From Chiloscyllium plagiosum (Eukaryota): a stretch of 64,000 nucleotides of DNA. A program made the position numbers and the translations under genes. Of the stretch, positions 896-60,163 are shown piece by piece. A model generated the notes under the pieces. That model had not been told where the DNA came from. It was given only the letters and a program-made list of their open reading frames with translations, and ran no database searches. Every line of letters starts with the position of its first letter. Position 1 is the stretch's first letter. The stretch spans positions 10,594,474 to 10,658,473 of the forward strand of contig NC_057718.1 of the NCBI RefSeq assembly GCF_004010195.1, read 5' to 3'.

Positions 896-936
896 GCTTG
901 GAAGAGATGGTGCACACAAATTTTGTCTGCCTTAAG
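896..936 (+). CDS. NRBP1: NRBP1 internal coding exon (AWKRWCTQILSAL-S), 41 nt, phase 0/2
   Basis: tttag|GCTTGG...TTAAG|gtaagt; the peptide matches the NRBP1 pseudokinase domain as I recall it and splices in frame to 6317. Confidence 0.95.
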
Positions 937-2258: not shown

Positions 2259-3363
2259 AGAGTCAAGATTAGAGTGGTGCTGGAAAAGCACAGCAGCATC
2301 CAAGGAGGAGGAAAATCAATGTTTCGGGCAAAAGCCCTTCATCAGGAATGAGGCAGGGAGCCACTTGGGTGGAGAGATAATTGGGAGGGAGGTGGGGCTG
2401 CAGGGAAGGTAGTTAAGAGTGCAGTAGGTGGATGGAGGTGGGGATGAAGGTGGTAAGTTGGAGAGGAGGGGGGAGCAGATAGCTGGAAGGAAGATGGGCA
2501 GGTCATGAGGATTGTGCTGAGCTGGCAGGTTGGAACTGGAGTAAGGTGGGTGGGAGAGGAAATGAGGAAACTTGTGAAGTCCACATTGATGCCCTGGGGT
2601 TGAAGTGTTCCGAGGCGGAAGATGAGGCATTCTTCCTCCAGGCATCAGGTAGTGAGAGAGTGGCGGTGGAGGAGGCCCAGGACCTGCATGTCCTTGATAG
2701 TGGGAGAGGGAGTTGAAATATTTGGCCACGGGGCGGCGGGGTTGATTGGTACGGGTGTCCCGGAGATGTTCCCTAAAGCGCTCTGCGAGAAGGCGTCCAG
2801 TTTCCCAATGTAAAGGTGACCACCTTGGGAGCATTGGATACAATAAATGACACTTGAGCAAGTGCAGGTGAAACTTTGGATGTGAAAGGCTCCTTTGGGT
2901 CCTTGGAGGAGTTGAGGGGGAGGTGTGGGTGCAGGTTTTGCAATTCCTGTGGTAGCAGGGGAAGGTGCCATTGTATCCGTTGCTCCCGATGCCATCTCCT
3001 TTACACTGGGGAGACTGGACACCTTCTCACAGCGCCTTAGGGAACATCTCTGGGACGCCCTCACCAATCAACCCCACCACCCCTTGGCTGTACATTTCAA
3101 CACCCCCTACCACAAGTCCTGAGCCACCTTCACTGTCACTCCCTCACCACCCAGTGCCTGGAGGAAGAATGCCTTATCTTCTGCCATGGAATACTTCAAC
3201 CCCAAGGCATCAATGTGGACTTCACCACTTTACTCATTCCTTCCCCGCCCCGCCCCAACCTTACCCCAGTTCCAACCTTCCCCCAGTTCCAACCTTCCAG
3301 CTCAGCACCATCCTTATGACCTGTCCCACCTGCCAATCTTCCTTCCCAGCTATCCGCTCCACC
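2259..3363. mobile_element. Penelope-like GIY-YIG/pLTR fragments in inverted arrangement (minus 2259-2960, plus 2965-3363)
   Basis: FTCTCSSVIYCIQCSQGGHLYIG and RLLAERFREHLRD GIY-YIG motifs; HHR-like motif on the minus strand at about 2314-2350. Confidence 0.8.
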
Positions 3364-3853
3364 NNNNNNNNNNNNNNNNNNNNNNNNNNNNNNNNNNNNN
3401 NNNNNNNNNNNNNNNNNNNNNNNNNNNNNNNNNNNNNNNNNNNNNNNNNNNNNNNNNNNNNNNNNNNNNNNNNNNNNNNNNNNNNNNNNNNNNNNNNNNN
3501 NNNNNNNNNNNNNNNNNNNNNNNNNNNNNNNNNNNNNNNNNNNNNNNNNNNNNNNNNNNNNNNNNNNNNNNNNNNNNNNNNNNNNNNNNNNNNNNNNNNN
3601 NNNNNNNNNNNNNNNNNNNNNNNNNNNNNNNNNNNNNNNNNNNNNNNNNNNNNNNNNNNNNNNNNNNNNNNNNNNNNNNNNNNNNNNNNNNNNNNNNNNN
3701 NNNNNNNNNNNNNNNNNNNNNNNNNNNNNNNNNNNNNNNNNNNNNNNNNNNNNNNNNNNNNNNNNNNNNNNNNNNNNNNNNNNNNNNNNNNNNNNNNNNN
3801 NNNNNNNNNNNNNNNNNNNNNNNNNNNNNNNNNNNNNNNNNNNNNNNNNNNNN
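3364..3853. other. Assembly gap (N run)
   Basis: run of N. Confidence 1.
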
Positions 3854-6316: not shown

Positions 6317-6411
6317 CTACCTCCACTCTTGTGATCCTCCAATAATCCATGGAAACCTGACTTGTGACACCATATTCATCCAGCATAATGGTCTCATAAA
6401 AATTGGATCTG
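6317..6411 (+). CDS. NRBP1: NRBP1 exon (YLHSCDPPIIHGNLTCDTIFIQHNGLIKIGS), 95 nt
   Basis: tatcag|CTAC...TCTG|gtaagt; degenerate catalytic loop (HGN instead of HRD) and no DFG, typical of the NRBP pseudokinase. Confidence 0.97.
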
Positions 6412-23559: not shown

Positions 23560-26071
23560 TCTGTTGTAGCAATAGCCTTACTTAAAATCTGACTTATTTA
23601 GACAGAATTCTTTGTGTTCCAAAATTGTTGAATAAATATTAATTGAATCATCCCCTTTTGTGATGCTGCCTAACGTCAATAGATGACCTCCTGTCAATAT
23701 AACAGATTACTATTTATAAATGTTTTTTTTTAAAAACGTTGTTGTGCTATTCCATGAATATTAACAAAAAAACACCATGTTACCCTTTTGGTAACAGAAC
23801 TTCCAACTCTTTCCCAGAAATTCTTGCTAGTTTATAAAGTACAGATCTACGTAATAACAGGTTAGGGTTTCATGTATTGCCGAAATGTAATTTGGAATCC
23901 ATTCAGAACATTGTTTACATTTGACTTTTTTTTGGTAAAGTTCATTTAAAATTAAAACACATTGATTCAGTTTCCTTTGTTTTGGCATCATTTGATCATC
24001 TGCTAGTACCGGGTGACACACACTATGGCTTCTGTTAACTAGATGATAGCTCTTTGGCTGAAAGCTACCAAGGATTTGATCATTTTTCTGAATCAATTCT
24101 CTGGTTGTTTTTAACAGCCTCTCACTCAGTACAGGAAAGATCAGAAGTTTAAAGGAGTAACAAATCCTCTGTTGCTCGAGTTCTGATTCAGTGAGTTGGT
24201 AATCCTGTCTACAGAAACAATGAATGACTTTGGTTTCTGATAGTCTTGTTGCAAAATACCACTTTGAAGATCTCTGTTAAAAGTTGAAGTCCTTTTATTC
24301 AAGAGCTGTTAAAAGCCTATTTGTTGAATTTTTGTGTGGTATGCAGAATTTCATAATTGACTGGCTTCCATGGAAAGAACTATTCCAACTTTCATAGAGA
24401 TTATAGCCAAATATTCCTCTTGTTCCTAGGGTGAGGCAATTTTTCAATGCTGTAAGCCAGCATATTTTTATACGGTGATGCAACTTAGGTCTGTAGTTAA
24501 TTATAGTTGGCAGTTTGACAGGGTATTATTATTCGGTTGCAAGTAATCTACGGTTTTATTGTGTGAAAGATACTACTCTAGAATTCCATCTTGGTGTAGC
24601 TTTTAAATGATATGCCCAGTTTTGAGTCCACGTTTGAGAGTTTGGACCTCTGACCTGGAGAATAAATTTTGATTAAATTGATCATGTAAAGTTGTCCATT
24701 GCAAGTTGTTGAGGTTCAGGAGTAGCAACCTTAGTGTTTAAAGGCTTCTTTAATATCTTGGACCAAAGATAGACTAACATTCAATTTTTAAGGGAAGTTA
24801 TCACAGATTAACAGTTCTCAGTAAAGAACATCAATAAGTATTAAGTTCCAGTGTTTCTACATTGCATTTCAAGGTAGCACATTCCTATTCCTCCTGTTGA
24901 AAAATACTGCTCAGCAAAATCCCCATGGGTTCTTCAGTTAGCATTTCATGGGCAATTAGGGACGGGCTATAAACGCTGACCTAGCTAGCGACATCCACAT
25001 CCCATTATCAAATTTGAAAAAATTATTTTGCATTTTTGGAAAGACTAGCAAATTGGACTTAATTGGTGGCTTTCTCGATTGTTCTTCATTCCTGATGCTA
25101 ACTCGTAAGTGTTTGTTTCATTACTTGTGGTCAATCTATATTAAGAGCAATGTAGGGTTTCCATTCATGAGTGAGGACAATCTGAAGGGTGTATCATGCA
25201 GCAATTCCAAATAGTCAGAGGGAGGGGATTCTTGTGTGCAAGATTTGCCTGTCTTGAAAATGTTGGTATCCGTATATTTCTCTCTCAAATGTCCTTGCAG
25301 TCTCAAAAGAGACATTCAAAGCATAGGTGAGAAGGGAGATGTAGCAGGGACTTGTTCTCGTGTGTAAAGTGCCTATTTGATTTTTAGCATGCGAGAGTTC
25401 AGTGAAATTTTTGAACTGTACGTTCACTTCCAATCTGAAAAATGACCATTTTGAAGTCGGGAGATTTTTCTATTCTTAGAAAACTATCAATCTCTAATGA
25501 ATTTGCATAACTCAAAAAATTATCCATTATTGTCCACCACCCTGTCTTGTCTTCATTCTGTTTAAAATTAACAAATGAAGGCCATCTTCATGGTAGACTA
25601 AAAGAAACTGTAGAAAATCTCCATTTGACCAGATTATTATGGTAAGTGATTTCCTCTTAAGATGAGGGCTGAATTGCTATACAGTATGTAAACTTTTGTT
25701 CAGCTCACATTAGTGAAATTATAAGTTAACCAAAAGTGAGTTAAACAAGAGTATTGCACCAATATATTTCATGTATTCACAAAACTCCTTTATCCCCCAT
25801 CCTTCTTTTGGTTTATTTTCCTTTTACTCGCCTCCTTCATGTCTTCTACCCTCTTCTGTCTTCCATAGCCCATCCCAACCCCCCACCCCATGACCTTCTC
25901 ATCACACCCCACTGCCACCATTTTTTCCATCTAGCTACAGTATAGGCAGTGTCTTGTTTTGAAGCTTTTGGTGGTTCTAACCCAGCTGTTGTATTTGCGA
26001 ATGCTCGCTGTTCCATCACTCATCAATTTCTTGTTTTATTTCCCCGCTTACGGCCGCTCTGTTGCGAACAG

Positions 26072-26095
26072 TCTTTCATAGGATATTTGCTAATG
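26072..26095 (+). CDS. NRBP1: NRBP1 24-nt microexon (V-FHRIFAN), probably alternative
   Basis: gttgcgaacag|TCTTTCATAGGATATTTGCTAATG|gtgaga; symmetric phase 1 gives IKIGS-VFHRIFAN-VAPDT, resembling NRBP2 VWHRIFSN at the same position. Confidence 0.88.
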
Positions 26096-26211
26096 GTGAG
26101 ATACTTCTCGGCTCCTGTGATGTGACTGTGTATTGTTATGTTTGTCTTTTAGCTTTTAAAATGTGTTAGTGTAAGCAATTTATGTTGGGAATGCTTAGCA
26201 GTCTTAGCTCT

Positions 26212-26225
26212 TGCATGAGTGCATG
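26212..26225 (+). promoter_or_regulatory. Tandem RBFOX-type motifs (TGCATG x2) downstream of the microexon
   Basis: tTGCATGagTGCATG, about 117 nt after the donor at 26096. Confidence 0.6.
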
Positions 26226-27127
26226 TGTTCACTTTACGAAAGCAATGTTGGCTTTATATGGAGTTTGTAACCCTTGTATTGTAAAATGACATGAGTTCCA
26301 TAAAATGACACCTGACTAAGCTTTGTCCTCTTCATGTGGATGTGCCAGCAGAGTCTGGCAAGTGACTGTTCTTTGTTAAGAGTTAACGTTCTCGAGCAAA
26401 ATGTGTTCTGAATGAAAATTGTCTTTTGCCCACTTGTTCATGCACAGAACAGAAAATCACCATGGACTTGTAGTTTTTCGATTTGGAGCAAACACTGTGT
26501 GTGTATGTGTATGTGCGTGTGTGGTGGGACAGCGGCGCAGCATCCAATTAGCTTTGTGAACTCTGAAGCAGTAATACCCAATGTAGAGTTCTGACGATAT
26601 TAAAACAACCTTACTCCCAAATCTGAAAAGATTCTTTGCCCTTTTCATCCTCATTGAGGGCTTGTGGTTTTCAAATCTCAAAATTGGAATCCCAGTTGAA
26701 AATAGTTTGCAAACCACTGACCATTTCAGGTTCCAGAAAGACCAAATCTTTGCAATTACTAAAATATAAAGTTTCAAAATATGTTTGTATTGATTTTAGT
26801 CAGTACATCATTTGTACCACAGCTTCCAGCAGGCAGAGCGGAAGGCTCTTCCGAGAGGTAAACATTTACCATGATCCAAATATTCAGAGGATCTTTTTCA
26901 GTTGCCATTCTTCAAGACAACGTGACCATTTATTCTTTTTGGAAAAAATACTTGCTGAGAAGTACATTAATTGAAGCAGACAAATTGCTGTGATTGGCAA
27001 GCTCTGAGATTGCAATCCTGTTGGTACAGAGAGAGAGAGAGTACTTTTATTTTTGTCCAGCAATTGCCCAACCAGCTCATTGAGACTTTTTTTTAGTTAA
27101 CTTACACTTTGATACACTCTCTTGGCT

Positions 27128-32396: not shown

Positions 32397-32715
32397 GTGG
32401 CGGCACGGTGGTTAGCACTGCTGCCTCACAGCGCCAGAGACCCAGATTCAATTCCCGGCTCAGACAACTGTCTGTGTGGAGTTTGCACATTCTCCCTGTG
32501 TCTGCGTGGGTTTCCTCTGGGTGCTCCGGTTTCCTCCCACAGTCCAAAAATGTGCAGGTTAGGTGAATTGGCCATGCTAAATTGCCCAAAGTGTTAGGTG
32601 AAGGGGTAATTGTAGGGGAATGGGTCTGGGTGGGTTACACTTCGGAGGGTTGGTGTGGACTTGTTGGACCGAAGGGCCTGTTTCCACACTGTTAGTAATC
32701 TAATCTAATCTAATC
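32397..32715 (+). mobile_element. V/HE1-type tRNA-derived SINE, near full length
   Basis: ggcggcacggtggttagcactgctgcctcacagcgcc head, V core and (taatc)n tail. Confidence 0.9.
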
Positions 32716-33369: not shown

Positions 33370-35090
33370 ATTTATTGCTTACCCCTCACTTTTCCAGAGA
33401 TGGTGGTGATGTACCACCTTCTTGAAAGTGCTAATATCTGTGTGATTAAAAGAGGAATTCCTGTATTTTGATCAAGTTGCAAAGAATGGGTGGAGATTAT
33501 AATTCCAAATCAGGAGTTTGTTTAACTTTTTGTTAAACATTCCTTTCTGCTGCTACCCTCCCTTTTTAATAGGGTAGAGTCAGGGGTTTAAAAATTACTA
33601 TGTAAGAGACTTTGTGAATTTCTGCACAAATGATGTGCTGATGGTGGATGAGATAGCAATCAAGCTTGGTGATTTGAGTTGCATGTGCAGTTGGAGCTGT
33701 TTATATCTCGGGAAGTGGAGAGCATTCTACCTTGCTCCCGTCTGGTATCTGTACATGATGAGAAAGAACTTGAAAAATTTGTGTCCTGCTCTTCATGCTG
33801 TTATTCTATGTTGCTGGTCCTGTTAAGTATCTGGTAAATGGCATCCTCCAGGATGCTGAAGATGGTGGATTTGACCATAAGACATGGGAGCAGAAGTAGT
33901 CCATTCAGCCCATTGAGTCTGCTTTGTTATTCAGTTAGATGATGGCTGATCTGATCATCTTAAGTCTACTTTCCTGCTGCTAGTAATACCATTGCATATG
34001 AAGTAGAGGCAATGTTCTATTCAATGGTGATTGCCTGGAACTTATATGGCACGAGTTAGTGCTCTCTTTCAACCCAGTCTGATTGATGTACAGCCCATGT
34101 GCATTTGGGCATAAACGTTCATTTCCTGGAGCACTAGGAATGGAATTGAACATTGTACTGCATTACTCCAATTTCTTCATTTGTGGAGCAGCTGCAAATG
34201 GTTAGGCTTAACTATAATCCAAAGGAACTCCTACAGCAATACCCTCATGCCATTAGATTAGATTAGATTACTTAGTGTGGAAACAGGCCCTTCGGCCCAA
34301 CAAGCCCACGCCGAAGCGCACCCACCCAGACCCATTCCCCTACATTTACCCCTGCACCTAACACTACAGGCAATTTTATAATTGCTTTCGAGCAACTAGT
34401 GTCTTTTTTTACTAGGCATAACTGCAGCCAATAGAGAGCTTTCCCTCATTGCTATTGCCTTCAAACTTACTAATGTTCCTTTGTGCTGTGTATGGTCAAA
34501 TATTGCCCAGTTGTTACCCTGGAGGGTGGTCATTTGCCCCTTACCTTTGGAATTGAGTGCTCTGTTTCCTGTTTGGACCACGGGTCTAATGAGGTTTGGA
34601 GAGAACTGACCTGTTAGGGCTGAAACATATTTTTGAGGGACAAGTCATTTGAGAAAAAGAGCTGTTTGATAATGTCAATCATCTCTTCTGTCAATTTGGG
34701 GTGCTAATTAGCTGGATAATACTTATCCTGATTTCCTGGTCGCAGCATACCTTTTGAGCATTTTCAGTGCAGATGCCAGTGCAGCAGCTGTATTGAACAG
34801 CTTGGTTAGAATTTCAGAGAATAGTCTTCAGTATTGCAGCAGGATGTTGAGGTCCAAAACCTGAGTTACGTGCAACATGCTGAGCCATTTCTATATCACA
34901 TAAAGTAAATTTAACTGTCTGAAAATTTGGAATCTATGTAGATTGCTGAGCTGGATCATCGACTTGGCTGTTTAGGCTGAAGGTAGTTGCAAATACTGAA
35001 GTCTTGTCTTTTGCAGTTCTTCTGTACATTCATTGAGGAAGATGATGTTTATGAAGCTTTCCTCATCTGTTAAGAGGTGATTGGCAGGAA
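33370..35090 (-). mobile_element. Highly degraded LINE with an inserted SINE 3' fragment (34253-34375, minus)
   Basis: tttattgcttacccct tail; (gatta)n SINE tail followed by ggaaacaggcccttcggcccaac. Confidence 0.5.
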
Positions 35091-35369: not shown

Positions 35370-35453
35370 TTGCACCTGATACAATTAACAACCATGTGAA
35401 AACCTGTAGAGAGGAACAAAAGAACCTGCACTTTTTTGCCCCAGAATATGGAG
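35370..35453 (+). CDS. NRBP1: NRBP1 exon (VAPDTINNHVKTCREEQKNLHFFAPEYG), 84 nt
   Basis: ctttcacag|TTGCA...GGAG|gtaaac; contains the APE motif; the VAPDTINNHVKT sequence distinguishes it from NRBP2. Confidence 0.97.
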
Positions 35454-37678: not shown

Positions 37679-37737
37679 CTGTAACAAATGTGACTACGGC
37701 TGTTGATATTTATTCATTTGGAATGTGTGCGTTAGAG
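37679..37737 (+). CDS. NRBP1: NRBP1 exon (AVTNVTTAVDIYSFGMCALE), 59 nt
   Basis: ttttacag|CTGTA...TTAGAG|gtatgt; kinase subdomain IX (DIYSFG). Confidence 0.97.
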
Positions 37738-41344: not shown

Positions 41345-41443
41345 ATGGCAGTATTGGAGATCCAGGGTAATGGAGAATCATCATACGTTTCGCAAGAAGC
41401 AATCAATAATGCAATTCAGTCACTAGAAGATGCTCTGCAGCGT
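41345..41443 (+). CDS. NRBP1: NRBP1 exon (MAVLEIQGNGESSYVSQEAINNAIQSLEDALQR), 99 nt
   Basis: ttttag|ATGGCA...CAGCGT|gtaagt; in frame with neighbours. Confidence 0.97.
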
Positions 41444-45931: not shown

Positions 45932-46064
45932 GAATTTATTCAGAAATGTCTGGAGGTTGATCCTGTCAAGCGACCCACCGCACGAGAGCTTCTGTTTCAC
46001 CCAGCTCTATTTGAAGTACCTTCACTAAAGTTATTAGCAGCGCATTGTATTGTCAGTCATCCTC
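45932..46064 (+). CDS. NRBP1: NRBP1 exon (EFIQKCLEVDPVKRPTARELLFHPALFEVPSLKLLAAHCIVSHP), 133 nt
   Basis: cattacag|GAATTT...CCTC|gtaagt; subdomain XI plus the Elongin BC-box-like motif VPSLKLLAAHCI. Confidence 0.97.
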
Positions 46065-52100: not shown

Positions 52101-55100
52101 TCCATCCTTTAGCCAAGTTTCTTTAATAGCTATGATATCCTAATCCTGTGTTCCAAACATGCCCTGAGTTTATCAGCCTTACCTGTGAGCCCCTTGCATT
52201 GAAATAAGTGCAATTTAATTCTTAAGAGTTATTTGTTCTCTTCCCCTCATGAGTCTTGTTTGATTTGTCTCCTGAACCTTACACATGCTTCCCTTTTCTT
52301 TTCAAATTAACTTTTAACGTGTCTCATCGGTTCCTGAATCTTGCCATTCTTGCCTTTCAAACTCTCATATATCTGATAGTGGTCTTGAATGACAGTCTTA
52401 ACCTTACCCCTATCCATAAGTAACTTGAAATTTATGAAATTATGATTACTGTTCCCAAAATGCTTCCTCAGTGAAACTTTGATCACCTGGTCAGGCTCAT
52501 TCCCCAATGCAAGGTTTAATACAGCCTATTCCCTAGTTGGACTACCTACATTTTGTTTCAAGAATACCTCCTGGATGCACCAAACAAATTCTGCCCTATC
52601 TAAGCCTTTGGCACTAAGGGAGTTCCAGTGAATTTGGAGAAATTAAAATCACACACTAACACAACCCTGTTGTTTTCACACCTTTCCACGAGCTGCTTCT
52701 ACATCTGTTCCTGCAATTCCTGTTGGCTATTGGGTGGCCAAAATATAACCCAATTATCGTCATTATACTTTTTTATTCCTAAATTCTATCTAAATTTCCT
52801 TGCTGGATGTGTCCTCCAAGATGTCCTCTTTTAGTACAGCTGTGACATTCTCCTTAATCAGTAATACAACTCCTTCACCCCTTTTCTGTCAAGCCTGAAA
52901 TATCTAAATCCTGGAACATTTAATTGCCCCTCCAGGCTTTCTCTCCACAAAGTTTCTGTAATAGCTACCACATTGTACACGCATACAATGATGCAAGCTA
53001 TAAGCTCACCTGCCTTGTCTGTTAGTCATTGCATTAAAATAAATACACTTCAGACTGCTAGTCCTGCTGTGTTAATTAGCCTTGTCATGGTTGTTCTTCC
53101 TACAAAACTGACTTAATTTTGCCCCTCTTTTTTTCTTTAAATACTCCACATGCTGAGCTGCTCTGGTTCCCACCGTCCTCACCCCACCATGCTGGTTTAA
53201 ACTGTCCTGAGTGGTTCAGGTTGTAAGCTTGCTTACTGAGCTGCAGGGTTTGTTTTCCGACATTTCGTCACCATGCTAGGTAACGACATCAGTGAGCCTC
53301 CGGTGAAGCGCTGGTGTTCTGTCCTGCTTTCTATTTGTGTCTTGATCGGTTAAGGTGGGTGATATCATTTCCGGTTCTTTTTCTCAGAGGTTGGTAAATG
53401 GGATCCAAATCAATGTGTTTATTGATGGAGTTCCGGTTTGAATGCCAGGCCTATAGGAATTCCCATGCGTGTCTCTGTTTAGCCTGCCCTAGGATGGATG
53501 TGTTGTCCCAGTCAAAGTGGTGTCCTCCTTCATCTGTGTGTGAGGATACTCTTGATAGCAAGTCATATCTTTTGGTGACTAGTTGGTGTTGGTGTATCCT
53601 GGTGGCTAGTTTTCTGCCCGATGTAGTGTTTATTACAGTCCTTGCAGGGTATTTTGTAAATGACATTGATTTTGCTGGTTGTTGGTATAAGGTCCTTTAG
53701 GTTCATCAGTTGCTCTTTCAGTGTATTGGTAGGTTTGTGGTTTATCATGATGCCGAGAGGTCGGAATAGTCTGGTAGTCATCTCCAAGATGTATTTTGAT
53801 GTTCCTGAAAGACAACAGACTCCCAGAAGAAACCCAGCAGGCCATCAGACAGACAGTTGCATCAACACTAAGCAGGAAAAAGGAAGGGAGCACCCTCAAC
53901 ACACAGGAAAGTCAAGTCCTGCAAGGGCCGAAAACATTGCAGACAAAGGGCGCATGACTGTCATCCTGAACAGAACACAGTACATTGAAAAGGCAAACTC
54001 ACTGCTCGCAGATGCCAACACTTACCAAGAGATGGCGATAAACCTGACTCCACAGCCAGAAAACCGTGCCACAGCTTTATTGAAGAAGTTTCATAAATCA
54101 GGCAAAATTAACAAGAAAGATCTCCAAAAAACGAAACCTGATGGATCCAACACACTTCGATTCTACACATTACCTAAGATACATAAACCAGAGGCACCCC
54201 TTAGACCTATAGTCTCACTCCCAGCCACAGTGATCTACAGACTAGCAAAGGAACGCCACCGAAAACTAAAATACCTAGTAGAAGACTCATGCTACTCCAT
54301 CCACACCACTCAAGAATTCCTGAACATCATCAAAGACATCGAGATAGAGAATGAAGTAATGGTCTCCTTTGATGTAACAGCCCTATTCACATCAATTAAC
54401 ACCAGCCTGGCCAAAGAAACACTGGCTGCACTACTAGACGAACCAAGGACACTAACACGAGACAGCACCAACATCATCGGCAAGGACAACATCCTCAATC
54501 TGTGACTCACTACCCAATTCACCTTCAATAACAAAACCTACAAAGAAATCAACGGAACACCTTTGGGATCACCAATATCAGACTTCTTATGGGCAGTAAT
54601 GCAGAGACTAGAGAGAAAAACAGCCCTCCCCACGATCTACCCCCAACCTTTGGGTCCACCAATTTGTCATTACAAAATGGAACAAATTAGAGGAAACCTA
54701 CAACATCATTAATAACGTCCTTACTGGTATAATGTTCACGAAAGAGGAAGAGAACAACAACAGACTCCCCTTCCTAGATGTCACAGTAGAACGAAAAGCC
54801 AATGGAGAGCTGCAGACCAGCGTCTACAGGAAACAACATGCACAGACCAGATACTCAACTACAAAAGAAATCATCCCAACACGCACAAATGGAGCTGTAT
54901 CAGAACATTATTTAAAAGTGCCACAACACACTGCAGCACCAGGAATTAACAAATGGCAGAAGAAAAATATTAATACAGCAAATTCAAGAACAATGGGTAT
55001 CTAATAAATACAATCCTCTGATTCTTAAACTACAAACCCAAACAAGCAGTCACAACATGCCCAGAAACTCTAGCCACACTATCAGACACATCTTGGAGTT

Positions 55101-56030
55101 GACTACCAGACTACCCTAACCCGTTGGCATCATGGTAGCCCACAAACCTACCAACATACTGAAACAGCAACTGATGAACCGAAAGGACCCCATACCAACA
55201 ACCAGCAAAATGAATGCCATTTACAAAATATCCTGCAAGGACTGTAACAAACACTACCTCGGACAGTCAGGCAGAAATCTAGCCACCAGGATACACTAAT
55301 ACCAACTAGCCACCAAAAGATATGACTCGCTATCACTAGTATCCTCAGACGAAGAGAGATACCACTTCGACTGGGACAACACATCCACCCTAGGACAGGC
55401 TAAACAGAGACACATGCGAATTCCTAGAGACCTGGCTTTCAAACCGGAACTCCATCAATAAACACATCGATTTGGACCCTATTTACCAATCTCTGAGAAA
55501 AAGAACCAGAAATCATGTCACCCACCTTAAAAGACCAAGACCCACAAATCGAAAGCGGGACAGAACACCAGCACTTCACCGCAGGCTCACTGCTGATGCT
55601 ACCTAGCATGGTGACGAAATGTTTGAAAACAAACCTTGCAGCTCAGCGAGCAAACTTACAACCTGCACCTCAACCTGAGCTACAAATCTTCTCAAAAAAT
55701 CGCAATCTCCTGACTGGCATTAACAAATCTCTTTGCAAGGATATTGGTAACCCTCTAGTTTAAATGCAACCCATTCTTCTTGTACTGACCCCATCTGCCC
55801 TGAAAGTGTTCCCAATGATTCATATATCTGAATCCCTCCCTTGTGCACCAGCTCTTTAGCCATGCATTCAGCAATATCTTCCTATTTCTGGTCTCGCTGG
55901 TATGTGGCACAGGGAATAACCCCAGATTACAACCCTACAAGTCCTGCTTTTCAGCTTCCGATCGAACTCCTCATTTATTTTTGCAGGACCTCATGTCTCT
56001 TGCTGCCTATGTCATTAGTACTATTAGACA
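49160..56030 (-). mobile_element. Long nested CR1 array (RT, APE, ORF1) interrupted by a Penelope element
   Basis: KKDRGAKRRGGVALLIKE (APE); HLLEYCVQLWSP and RRLRSDLVEVYKI (RT C-terminus). Confidence 0.85.
53215..55705 (+). mobile_element. Penelope-like retroelement (family C): decayed RT plus GIY-YIG plus pLTR, with an inverted 5' arm
   Basis: DKGRMTVILN, FYTLPKIHKPEAPLRPIVS, VSFDVTALFTSI, GTPLGSPIS, FTKEEENNNRLPFLDVTV...VYRK, IYKISCKDCNKHYLGQ; 53215-53792 mirrors about 55088-55668. Confidence 0.93.
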
Positions 56031-56732: not shown

Positions 56733-56835
56733 ACGTGATTCCTGAAAATGCTTTGGAAGAAATAACAAAAAGCATGGATATGAATGCAGTTCTAGCAGAG
56801 ATTTTCCATCATGATGCAGAGGGAGTACAAATCAG
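56733..56835 (+). CDS. NRBP1: NRBP1 exon (HVIPENALEEITKSMDMNAVLAEIFHHDAEGVQI-R), 103 nt
   Basis: ttgttacag|ACGTG...ATCAG|gtattg; phase 1/2 is consistent. Confidence 0.95.
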
Positions 56836-56911: not shown

Positions 56912-58345
56912 CATAGAACATAGAAGAATACAGCGCAGTACAGGCCCTTCGGCCCTCGATGTTGCGCCGATCCAAGCCCACCTAACCTACACTAGCCCAC
57001 TATCCTCCATATGCCTATCCAATGCCCATAATGAGGGAGAGTCCACCACTGCTACTGGCAGGGCATTCCATGAACTCACGACTCACTGAGTAAAGAACCT
57101 ACCCCTAACATTTGTCCGAAACCTACCTCCCCTTAATTTAAAGCTATGCCCCCTCGTAATAGCTGACTCCATACGTGGAAAAAGATTCTCACTGTCGACC
57201 CTATCTAAACCCCTAACCATCTTNNNNNNNNNNNNNNNNNNNNNNNNNNNNNNNNNNNNNNNNNNNNNNNNNNNNNNNNNNNNNNNNNNNNNNNNNNNNN
57301 NNNNNNNNNNNNNNNNNNNNNNNNNNNNNNNNNNNNNNNNNNNNNNNNNNNNNNNNNNNNNNNNNNNNNNNNNNNNNNNNNNNNNNNNNNNNNNNNNNNN
57401 NNNNNNNNNNNNNNNNNNNNNNNNNNNNNNNNNNNNNNNNNNNNNNNNNNNNNNNNNNNNNNNNNNNNNNNNNNNNNNNNNNNNNNNNNNNNNNNNNNNN
57501 NNNNNNNNNNNNNNNNNNNNNNNNNNNNNNNNNNNNNNNNNNNNNNNNNNNNNNNNNNNNNNNNNNNNNNNNNNNNNNNNNNNNNNNNNNNNNNNNNNNN
57601 NNNNNNNNNNNNNNNNNNNNNNNNNNNNNNNNNNNNNNNNNNNNNNNNNNNNNCCTAAACTGCACACAATATTCCAGATGCGGTCGTACCAGAGTCTTAT
57701 ACAACTGCATCATGACCTCAGGACTCCGGAACTCAATTCCTCTACCGATAAAAGCCAGTACGCCATATGCCTTCCTCACCGCACTATTTACCTGGGTGGC
57801 AACTTTCAGAGATCTGTGTACATGGACACCAAGATCCCTCTGCTCATCCACACTACCAAGTATCCGACCATTAGCCCAGTACCCCATCTTTTTGTTATTC
57901 TTCCCAAAGTGAATCACCTCGCACTTAGCTACATTGGATTCCATCTGCCACCTTTCTGCCCAGCTCTGCAGCTTCTCTATATCCTGCTGTAACCTGCCAC
58001 ATCCTTCCTCACTGTCTACAACTCCTCCTACTTTCGTATCATCCGCAAACTTGCTCACCTAACCTTCTAACCCCTCTTCCAGGTCATTTATAAAAATGAC
58101 AAACAGCAATGGTCCCAAAACAGATCCTTGCGGAACACCGCTAGTGACGGCACTCCAAGATGAACCTTTGCCATCAACTACTACCCTCTGTCTTCTTCCA
58201 GCCAGCCAACTCCTAATCCAAACCACCAACTCACCCTCAATGCCATACCTCCGTATTTTTTGCAGTAGTCAACCATGGGGAACCTTATCAAACGCCTTAC
58301 TAAAATCCATATACACCACATCTACCGCTTTCCCCTCGTCCACCT
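56912..58345 (-). mobile_element. Young CR1 LINE, 5' truncated, spanning a gap
   Basis: uninterrupted RT frame SKFADDTKVGG...TLVRPHLEYCVQF; clean 3' tail. Confidence 0.93.
57224..57652. other. Assembly gap (N run)
   Basis: run of N inside the CR1. Confidence 1.
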
Positions 58346-58657: not shown

Positions 58658-58708
58658 ATTCTCCCAGTTTCCTGCACTGGAGTTAGATAAGTTTTTAGAG
58701 GATGTGAG
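58658..58708 (+). CDS. NRBP1: NRBP1 exon (FSQFPALELDKFLEDV-R), 51 nt
   Basis: ccttacag|ATTC...GTGAG|gtaaga. Confidence 0.96.
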
Positions 58709-59331: not shown

Positions 59332-59467
59332 GAATGGTATTTATCCTTTGACTGCATTTGGAATGCCCATGCCTCAGCAGCCACAGCAAGAGACTGTGAC
59401 ATCACCCATTATCCCACCATCTGTGAAAACCCCAACACCAGAACCTGCAGAGCTGGAGACAAGAAAG
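59332..59467 (+). CDS. NRBP1: NRBP1 exon ([45 protein letters not shown]), 136 nt
   Basis: tttgaag|GAATGG...AGAAAG|gtaaag; AAG acceptor; the coding frame differs from the ORF-track frame at 59311. Confidence 0.96.
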
Positions 59468-60109: not shown

Positions 60110-60163
60110 GTTGTTCAGATGCACTGCAATATTGAGCCAGTTGATGAAGGAGCCAAGCATCAT
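60110..60163 (+). CDS. NRBP1: NRBP1 exon (VVQMHCNIEPVDEGAKHH), 54 nt; the gene continues beyond the window
   Basis: branch-like ctgac at about 60076, a polyT tract, gacag|GTTGTT...CATCAT|gtaagt. Confidence 0.96.

Follow-up and report, generated by a model that had tools for sequence, protein, structure and literature searches.

Neural microexons of the SRRM4 type are characterized, in the accessible text of PMC12871342, by a UGC motif, a polypyrimidine tract displaced upstream and branch points approximately 45 nt away. The pseudokinase NRBP1 was recently described as an activator of the WNK-SPAK/OSR1 osmotic pathway, in a form of 535 residues that lacks the exon considered here. The accessible sections of PMC12266122, in which this 535-residue (skipped-length) protein was studied with WNK, report that WNK1 phosphorylates NRBP1 at Thr232, that this phosphorylation is dispensable for rescue of the WNK pathway, that modelling and co-precipitation place the pseudokinase domain in dimers with itself, with NRBP2 or with WNK1, and that activation of WNK4 by NRBP2 is comparable.

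In the present study, we analyzed a 24-nt exon at 26072..26095 on the + strand of a 64,000-nt stretch of Chiloscyllium plagiosum DNA, hereafter the window. The best explanation as a whole, and one that we regard as likely, is an alternatively spliced cassette microexon of NRBP1 that arose before the duplication of the gene, is regulated neurally and tunes the shape of the protein. Its annotation in many genomes, a chondrichthyan one among them, means that the exon was known beforehand as a feature of the sequence, and the preliminary description of this locus went too far in calling it hidden and easily missed: it is present in RefSeq isoform X1 of many tetrapods and in Callorhinchus (UniRef A0A4W3IQ47). 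A published study of this NRBP1 exon was not found among the full-text papers listed in literature searches, although VastDB-type tables and bioRxiv supplements may well include it, and the accessible part of PMC12266109 contains nothing on it. The present analysis adds an argument on its age, the opposite defaults of the two paralogues, a probable loss in teleosts and invertebrate inserts at the same junction.

The host gene and the exon at 26072..26095

The other exons were located by tblastn with NRBP proteins, all on the + strand. An NRBP1 exon (AWKRWCTQILSAL) lies at 896..936, the exon upstream of the microexon (ending in YLHSCDPPIIHGNLTCDTIFIQHNGLIKIGS, in phase 1) at 6317..6411, and the downstream exon (VAPDTINNHVKTCREEQKNLHFFAPEYG), which contains the equivalent of Thr232, at 35370..35453; seven more follow at 37679-37737, 41345-41443, 45932-46064, 56733-56835, 58658-58708, 59332-59467 and 60110-60163. 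The predicted product is 87-90% identical to four NRBP1 proteins and 59-66% identical to five NRBP2 proteins, and in a tree of 29 proteins it is the sister of Callorhinchus NRBP1 (99/99) within an NRBP1 group (93/97), the NRBP2 group being recovered at 100/100. The identity values and the tree position therefore identify the gene as NRBP1 of a cartilaginous fish.

The microexon was recognized from its splice sites, its frame and the identical peptide of its orthologues. It is preceded by the 3' splice site AG (CAG) at 26070..26071 and followed by the 5' splice site GTGAGA at 26096..26101, is in phase 1-1 and encodes (V)FHRIFAN. Joined between the exons ending at 6411 and starting at 35370, it yields IKIGS-VFHRIFAN-VAPDT...FAPE, and its skipping yields IKIGS-VAPDT; the 11 exons from 896 to 60163 remain open both ways, with 293 aa including the microexon, 285 aa excluding it and no stops. 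The size (the limit for microexons being 27-30 nt), the canonical splice sites and the frame kept with and without the exon are those of a cassette microexon, and both isoforms occur in orthologues, as database pairs from Callorhinchus, turtles and mammals that are gene models, not reads. The preliminary description of an AG/GT-bounded, frame-preserving exon in a 29-kb interval, with VFHRIFAN between IKIGS and VAPDT...APE, was thus accurate, except that the exon does not follow the DFG position, but falls inside the DFG-equivalent triplet; the term "alternative" holds on the basis of these isoform pairs, which are gene models rather than reads of this species.

A chance AG..GT segment in a 29-kb intron is the first alternative to be considered. 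The intron at 6412-35369 contains 1060 AG..GT segments of 3-51 nt that lack stops and would preserve the frame; 12 of these satisfy a crude filter for splice sites, and hence the AG/GT boundaries of the microexon prove nothing by themselves. The peptide, however, is beyond chance. When the 67 candidate 24-nt segments of the intron were compared using BLOSUM62, the microexon scored 43 against the mammalian NRBP1 insert (runner-up, 13) and 32-37 against three NRBP2 inserts (runner-up, 5-10). This difference and the exact identity of all eight residues to the annotated exons of distant vertebrates refute a chance origin, to which we assign practically no weight. Based on position, frame, orthology, paralogy and the database isoform pairs with and without it, 26072-26095 is almost certainly a genuine optional exon.

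In a comparison of 25900-26400 with sequencing runs, no RNA run was listed as containing the segment; five rows with a small share and two of raw RNA reads were also returned, and 7 rows of a second organism (3 studies), which shared 0.63 of the words, were left out of the argument. There were no Rfam matches in the whole window, and the predicted RNA folding of 25985-26130 was not significant (z -1.61). The window also includes broken reading frames at 53660-55600 and 188-475, which resemble the reverse transcriptase/endonuclease of a Penelope-like retroelement, a pair of inverted repeat fragments (32579-32690 and 34274-34376, approximately 91% similar) in the intron downstream of the microexon, and runs of N at approximately 3360-3850 and 57220-57650 (920 N in total), both outside 6412-35369.

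Conservation, the NRBP2 counterpart and age

VFHRIFAN occurs without change, and at the corresponding junction, in NRBP1 isoforms annotated from the elephant shark, amphibians, reptiles, birds and mammals, in agreement with the earlier claim that NRBP1 isoforms with the insert exist in other vertebrates. A protein search with an insert-bearing bird fragment, which therefore leans towards inclusion forms, returned 1312 matches; among the best 120 examined, the peptide was unchanged in 18, all tetrapod NRBP1, while 98 carried NRBP2-type V-W-H-R/K variants and 4 were unparsed. Cluster look-ups added Callorhinchus P0238 and the caecilian P0249. The Callorhinchus pair P0238/P0023 and the turtle pair P0129/P0250 differ at the site by exactly these 8 residues. 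Among the 15 members listed for each large cluster (of 122-384), 4 of the mammalian NRBP1 proteins include the microexon and 11 skip it, and in the bird-centred cluster 1 includes it, 12 skip it and 2 are otherwise; these are counts of gene models, not of expression.

NRBP2 possesses its own 8-residue version: VWHRLFVN in fish, VWHRVFAN in sauropsids and VWHRIFSN in apes (P0465, P0639), the last as stated in the preliminary description. Three fish read-through models (P0007, P0087 and P0092) retain an intron before and after VWHRLFVN, and in NRBP2 the segment is therefore an exon in its own right, equal in size and phase. In three NRBP2 clusters, 34 of the 36 members listed, again gene models, include their version; models that skip it are P0473, P0503, P0540 (vs P0609), P0644, P0645 (vs P0654) and P0119. 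The microexon is thus usually skipped in NRBP1 models and usually included in NRBP2 models, which makes this a clean case of splice choice that has diverged between paralogues. In the accessible text of PMC7352854, NRBP2 in the adult brain is mainly confined to certain neurons, which fits, without proving, the fixation of a neural isoform. Three fish models (P0166, P0174 and P0189) join NRBP2 to an RRM protein, named PUF60 in one case, and are probably merged neighboring genes.

Conservation of the element for a role at the RNA level, with the peptide incidental, would be consistent with the typically conserved flanks of microexons. However, substitutions among the NRBP2 versions are conservative (F>W, I>L/V and A>V/S), and the pattern hydrophobic-H-R-hydrophobic-F is kept in 98 of the 102 non-NRBP1 matches among the best 120 (the remaining 4 being those unparsed), which points to selection on the peptide and leaves an RNA-level role very improbable.

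The presence of a paralogous exon in NRBP2, together with the position of the window gene in the NRBP1 clade, places the exon before the NRBP1/NRBP2 duplication, as was originally proposed, and since this duplication is assigned to early vertebrates in the part of PMC12254500 available, the exon is also older than the split between cartilaginous and bony fish. In the scenario that we favor, the microexon was already in place before the duplication and its peptide has stayed the same in cartilaginous fish and mammals; NRBP2 would afterwards have adopted the included form as its default, and several teleost NRBP1 genes would have lost the exon.

Regarding teleosts, NRBP1 with the insert was absent from the best 120 of the 1312 matches. 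Read-through of 81-135 nt between IKIGS and VAPDT was found in NRBP1 models P0003, P0010, P0017, P0038, P0044, P0075, P0082 and P0107 and in three named teleost NRBP1 (P0081, P0085 and P0093, from Puntigrus, Onychostoma and Syngnathus), the latter with 81-87 nt. A segment of 81-87 nt cannot hold the exon plus two introns, and protein models therefore suggest that the microexon was apparently lost from several teleost NRBP1 genes. Oreochromis NRBP1 models P0094, P0096 and P0100 have GGFHRSFKAV at the junction, either an annotation artefact or a degenerate relic of the exon beside the donor.

That teleost NRBP1 appears to manage without the exon might suggest that in C. plagiosum it has become a silent relic, now left out of the transcript, or else a constitutive exon, close to the situation in NRBP2. 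Against this, both forms are annotated in Callorhinchus, all eight residues and both splice sites are intact, and the skipped form has the ancestral length, inserts of any kind being absent from 113 of 119 invertebrate-dominated representatives. Accordingly, we consider a constitutive or relic exon improbable and retain the reading of an optional exon.

Flanking sequence and possible regulation

The 11 acceptors of the gene were compared. A distal polypyrimidine tract upstream of the microexon (26027..26047, -45..-25) has the highest pyrimidine fraction among them, 0.86 versus 0.33-0.67 in the others, and the proximal content at -15..-5 is 0.64, the joint lowest. The candidate branch point CTCAT (26019..26023), whose A is at -50, is among four matches to YUNAY (-92, -50, -34 and -22) and lies within an AG-free zone of 84 nt, the second longest after one of 107 nt at another exon. 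A UGC of the SRRM3/4 type is located at -9 (26063..26065), and no other of the 11 acceptors has UGC in its last 20 nt; among random YAG sites in the intron, the background is 148 of 876 (17%). TGCATG, which we take to be an RBFOX-type motif, is found at +117 and again at +125 (26212..26225), giving 2 occurrences within 300 nt downstream where 0.12 are expected (Poisson p 0.007); one downstream TGCATG occurs at 2 of the 10 other exons.

These features suggest that the exon may be skipped by default because of its weak proximal pyrimidine tract, and switched on in neurons by SRRM3/4 acting at the UGC with the assistance of the downstream RBFOX sites, a mechanism that we regard as somewhat probable. 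Alternatively, a real cassette exon may be regulated outside neurons, in muscle or heart through RBFOX, or show weak inclusion in all tissues. RBFOX is active in muscle, the excess of TGCATG would serve such regulation equally, and UGC alone is common. Moreover, the exon does not appear under the name NRBP1 in the neural-microexon supplements searched. AGAP1, which we take to be a known microexon target, served as a control in one of them. In the supplement of PMC7935315 (18 of 19 files), NRBP1 appeared only in an expression table and AGAP1 was likewise absent from the exon tables, so that the search by name is blind there; in the supplements of PMC7821500 (8 files), PMC12626424 (12), PMC12868881 (1), PMC13759335 (12 of 21) and PMC12626420 (12 of 13), the NRBP1 exon was not found by name. 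Non-neural regulation is nevertheless rather unlikely because only this acceptor of the 11 combines the distal tract with a weak proximal one, a long stretch free of AG and the UGC at -9; together with the candidate distant branch point, these features reproduce the neural pattern reported in the available text of PMC12871342.

The pseudokinase loop and described counterparts

K-I-G-S-V of NRBP1 corresponds to K-I-G-D-L-G of WNK3 in the alignment, and since the junction splits the V codon between its first and second bases, inclusion turns S-V-A into S-V-F (S-V-W in NRBP2). The segment as far as APE has 27 residues when the exon is skipped and 35 when it is included, versus 26 in WNK3. The Thr of HVKT, downstream of the microexon, is residue 232 in mammalian NRBP1 of 535 aa and becomes residue 240 when the protein has 543 aa. 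In the AlphaFold models of a turtle pair, a helix at 225-231 (HRIFANV) is present in the included form only, and the loop is of low confidence in both (block pLDDT 53 and 41 with the exon; 222-239 below 50 without it). A solved structure of NRBP was not found, the nearest being those of WNK1/WNK3. The insert did not fit RFxV/RxFxV, a docking motif, on inspection by eye.

Since NRBP1 cannot catalyse, the exon would act on shape. By changing the DFG-equivalent S-V-A to S-V-F and adding a short amphipathic helix, one face of which is formed by V/F/I/F, where the activation segment begins and 11 residues ahead of Thr232, the target of WNK, it may tune the contacts of the pseudokinase domain with itself, NRBP2 or WNK rather than switch WNK activation on or off; this proposal is tentative and falls a little short of being probable. 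The likeliest role of the exon would be the fine-tuning of a binding surface. An invariant, optional insert of 8 residues in a loop phosphorylated by WNK offers a ready comparison of isoforms, 535 versus 543 aa.

Optional inserts at the KIGS|VAPD junction also occur in RefSeq NRBP isoforms of Octopus, squid, Ruditapes, Mytilus, Babylonia and Dermacentor (P0253-P0266, P0391-P0399, P0407, P0419 and P0437-P0441), with four different inserts used in combinations in Octopus and two in Mytilus. In isoforms of the mussel and tick (P0390-P0401 and P0404-P0417), variation was also noted directly past APEY, at the next exon junction. Ten protostome inserts, chosen after inspection, were subjected to shuffle tests, and one of the ten reached p<0.01: octopus GSFFERM(F), with a best 5-mer score of 18 against the vertebrate peptide (p=0.0034). 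The clam insert gave p 0.054 and the mussel insert p 0.074, and seven others showed no resemblance. An Oreochromis model resembling donor read-through gave p 0.0064, which warns that such a resemblance may arise from annotation. A non-vertebrate version of the insert was not found in the 80 anchor-bearing proteins among 146 new ones from a search of 50% representatives (66 lacking the anchor motif), and the insert was absent from the one hagfish model, which says little by itself, and the one starfish model, the records identified including none from amphioxus or lamprey.

A broader reading would regard the phase-1 intron in the degenerate DFG of NRBP as a site at which splicing has tuned the protein ever since the ancestor of bilaterians, with VFHRIFAN homologous to octopus GSFFERM and clam ESNLERLFG, each supplying the loop of the pseudokinase with a helix of the form hydrophobic-x-R-hydrophobic-F, the included form being fixed in the neuron-enriched NRBP2 and dropped in teleost NRBP1. 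If so, a choice of splicing between tissues would have been converted into a difference between paralogues. We consider this reading doubtful, and reuse of an intron position has more support than an ancient homology of the inserts.

Taken together, the NRBP1 microexon is real, ancient and an ordinary kind of element with a putative function. Protostome inserts, known from protein models, resemble it in the KIGS|VAPD junction, the preserved frame and the restriction to some isoforms, and the pattern hydrophobic-E/H-R-hydrophobic-F is common to it, octopus GSFFERM(F) and clam ESNLERLFG; however, the protostome inserts have 7-23 residues and mostly unrelated sequences. The activation-segment exon of NRBP2 has the junction, phase, length and residue pattern in common with it, but is included in 34/36 of the models listed, versus 4/15 for mammalian NRBP1, and its upstream intron is only 75-96 nt in three fish-type read-through models. 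SRRM3/4-dependent neural microexons are likewise frame-preserving, highly conserved and accompanied by a UGC near the 3' site and a distal pyrimidine tract, with 24 nt being a shared size, so that the likeness is one of sequence. The closest counterpart is the long isoform annotated for NRBP1 (RefSeq X1, with 543 aa in mammals, e.g., XP_036922585.1; UniRef100_A0A4W3IQ47 in Callorhinchus), which has the same junction, length and 8/8 residues, and from which the shark exon, located in its 29-kb interval, shows no difference in peptide.
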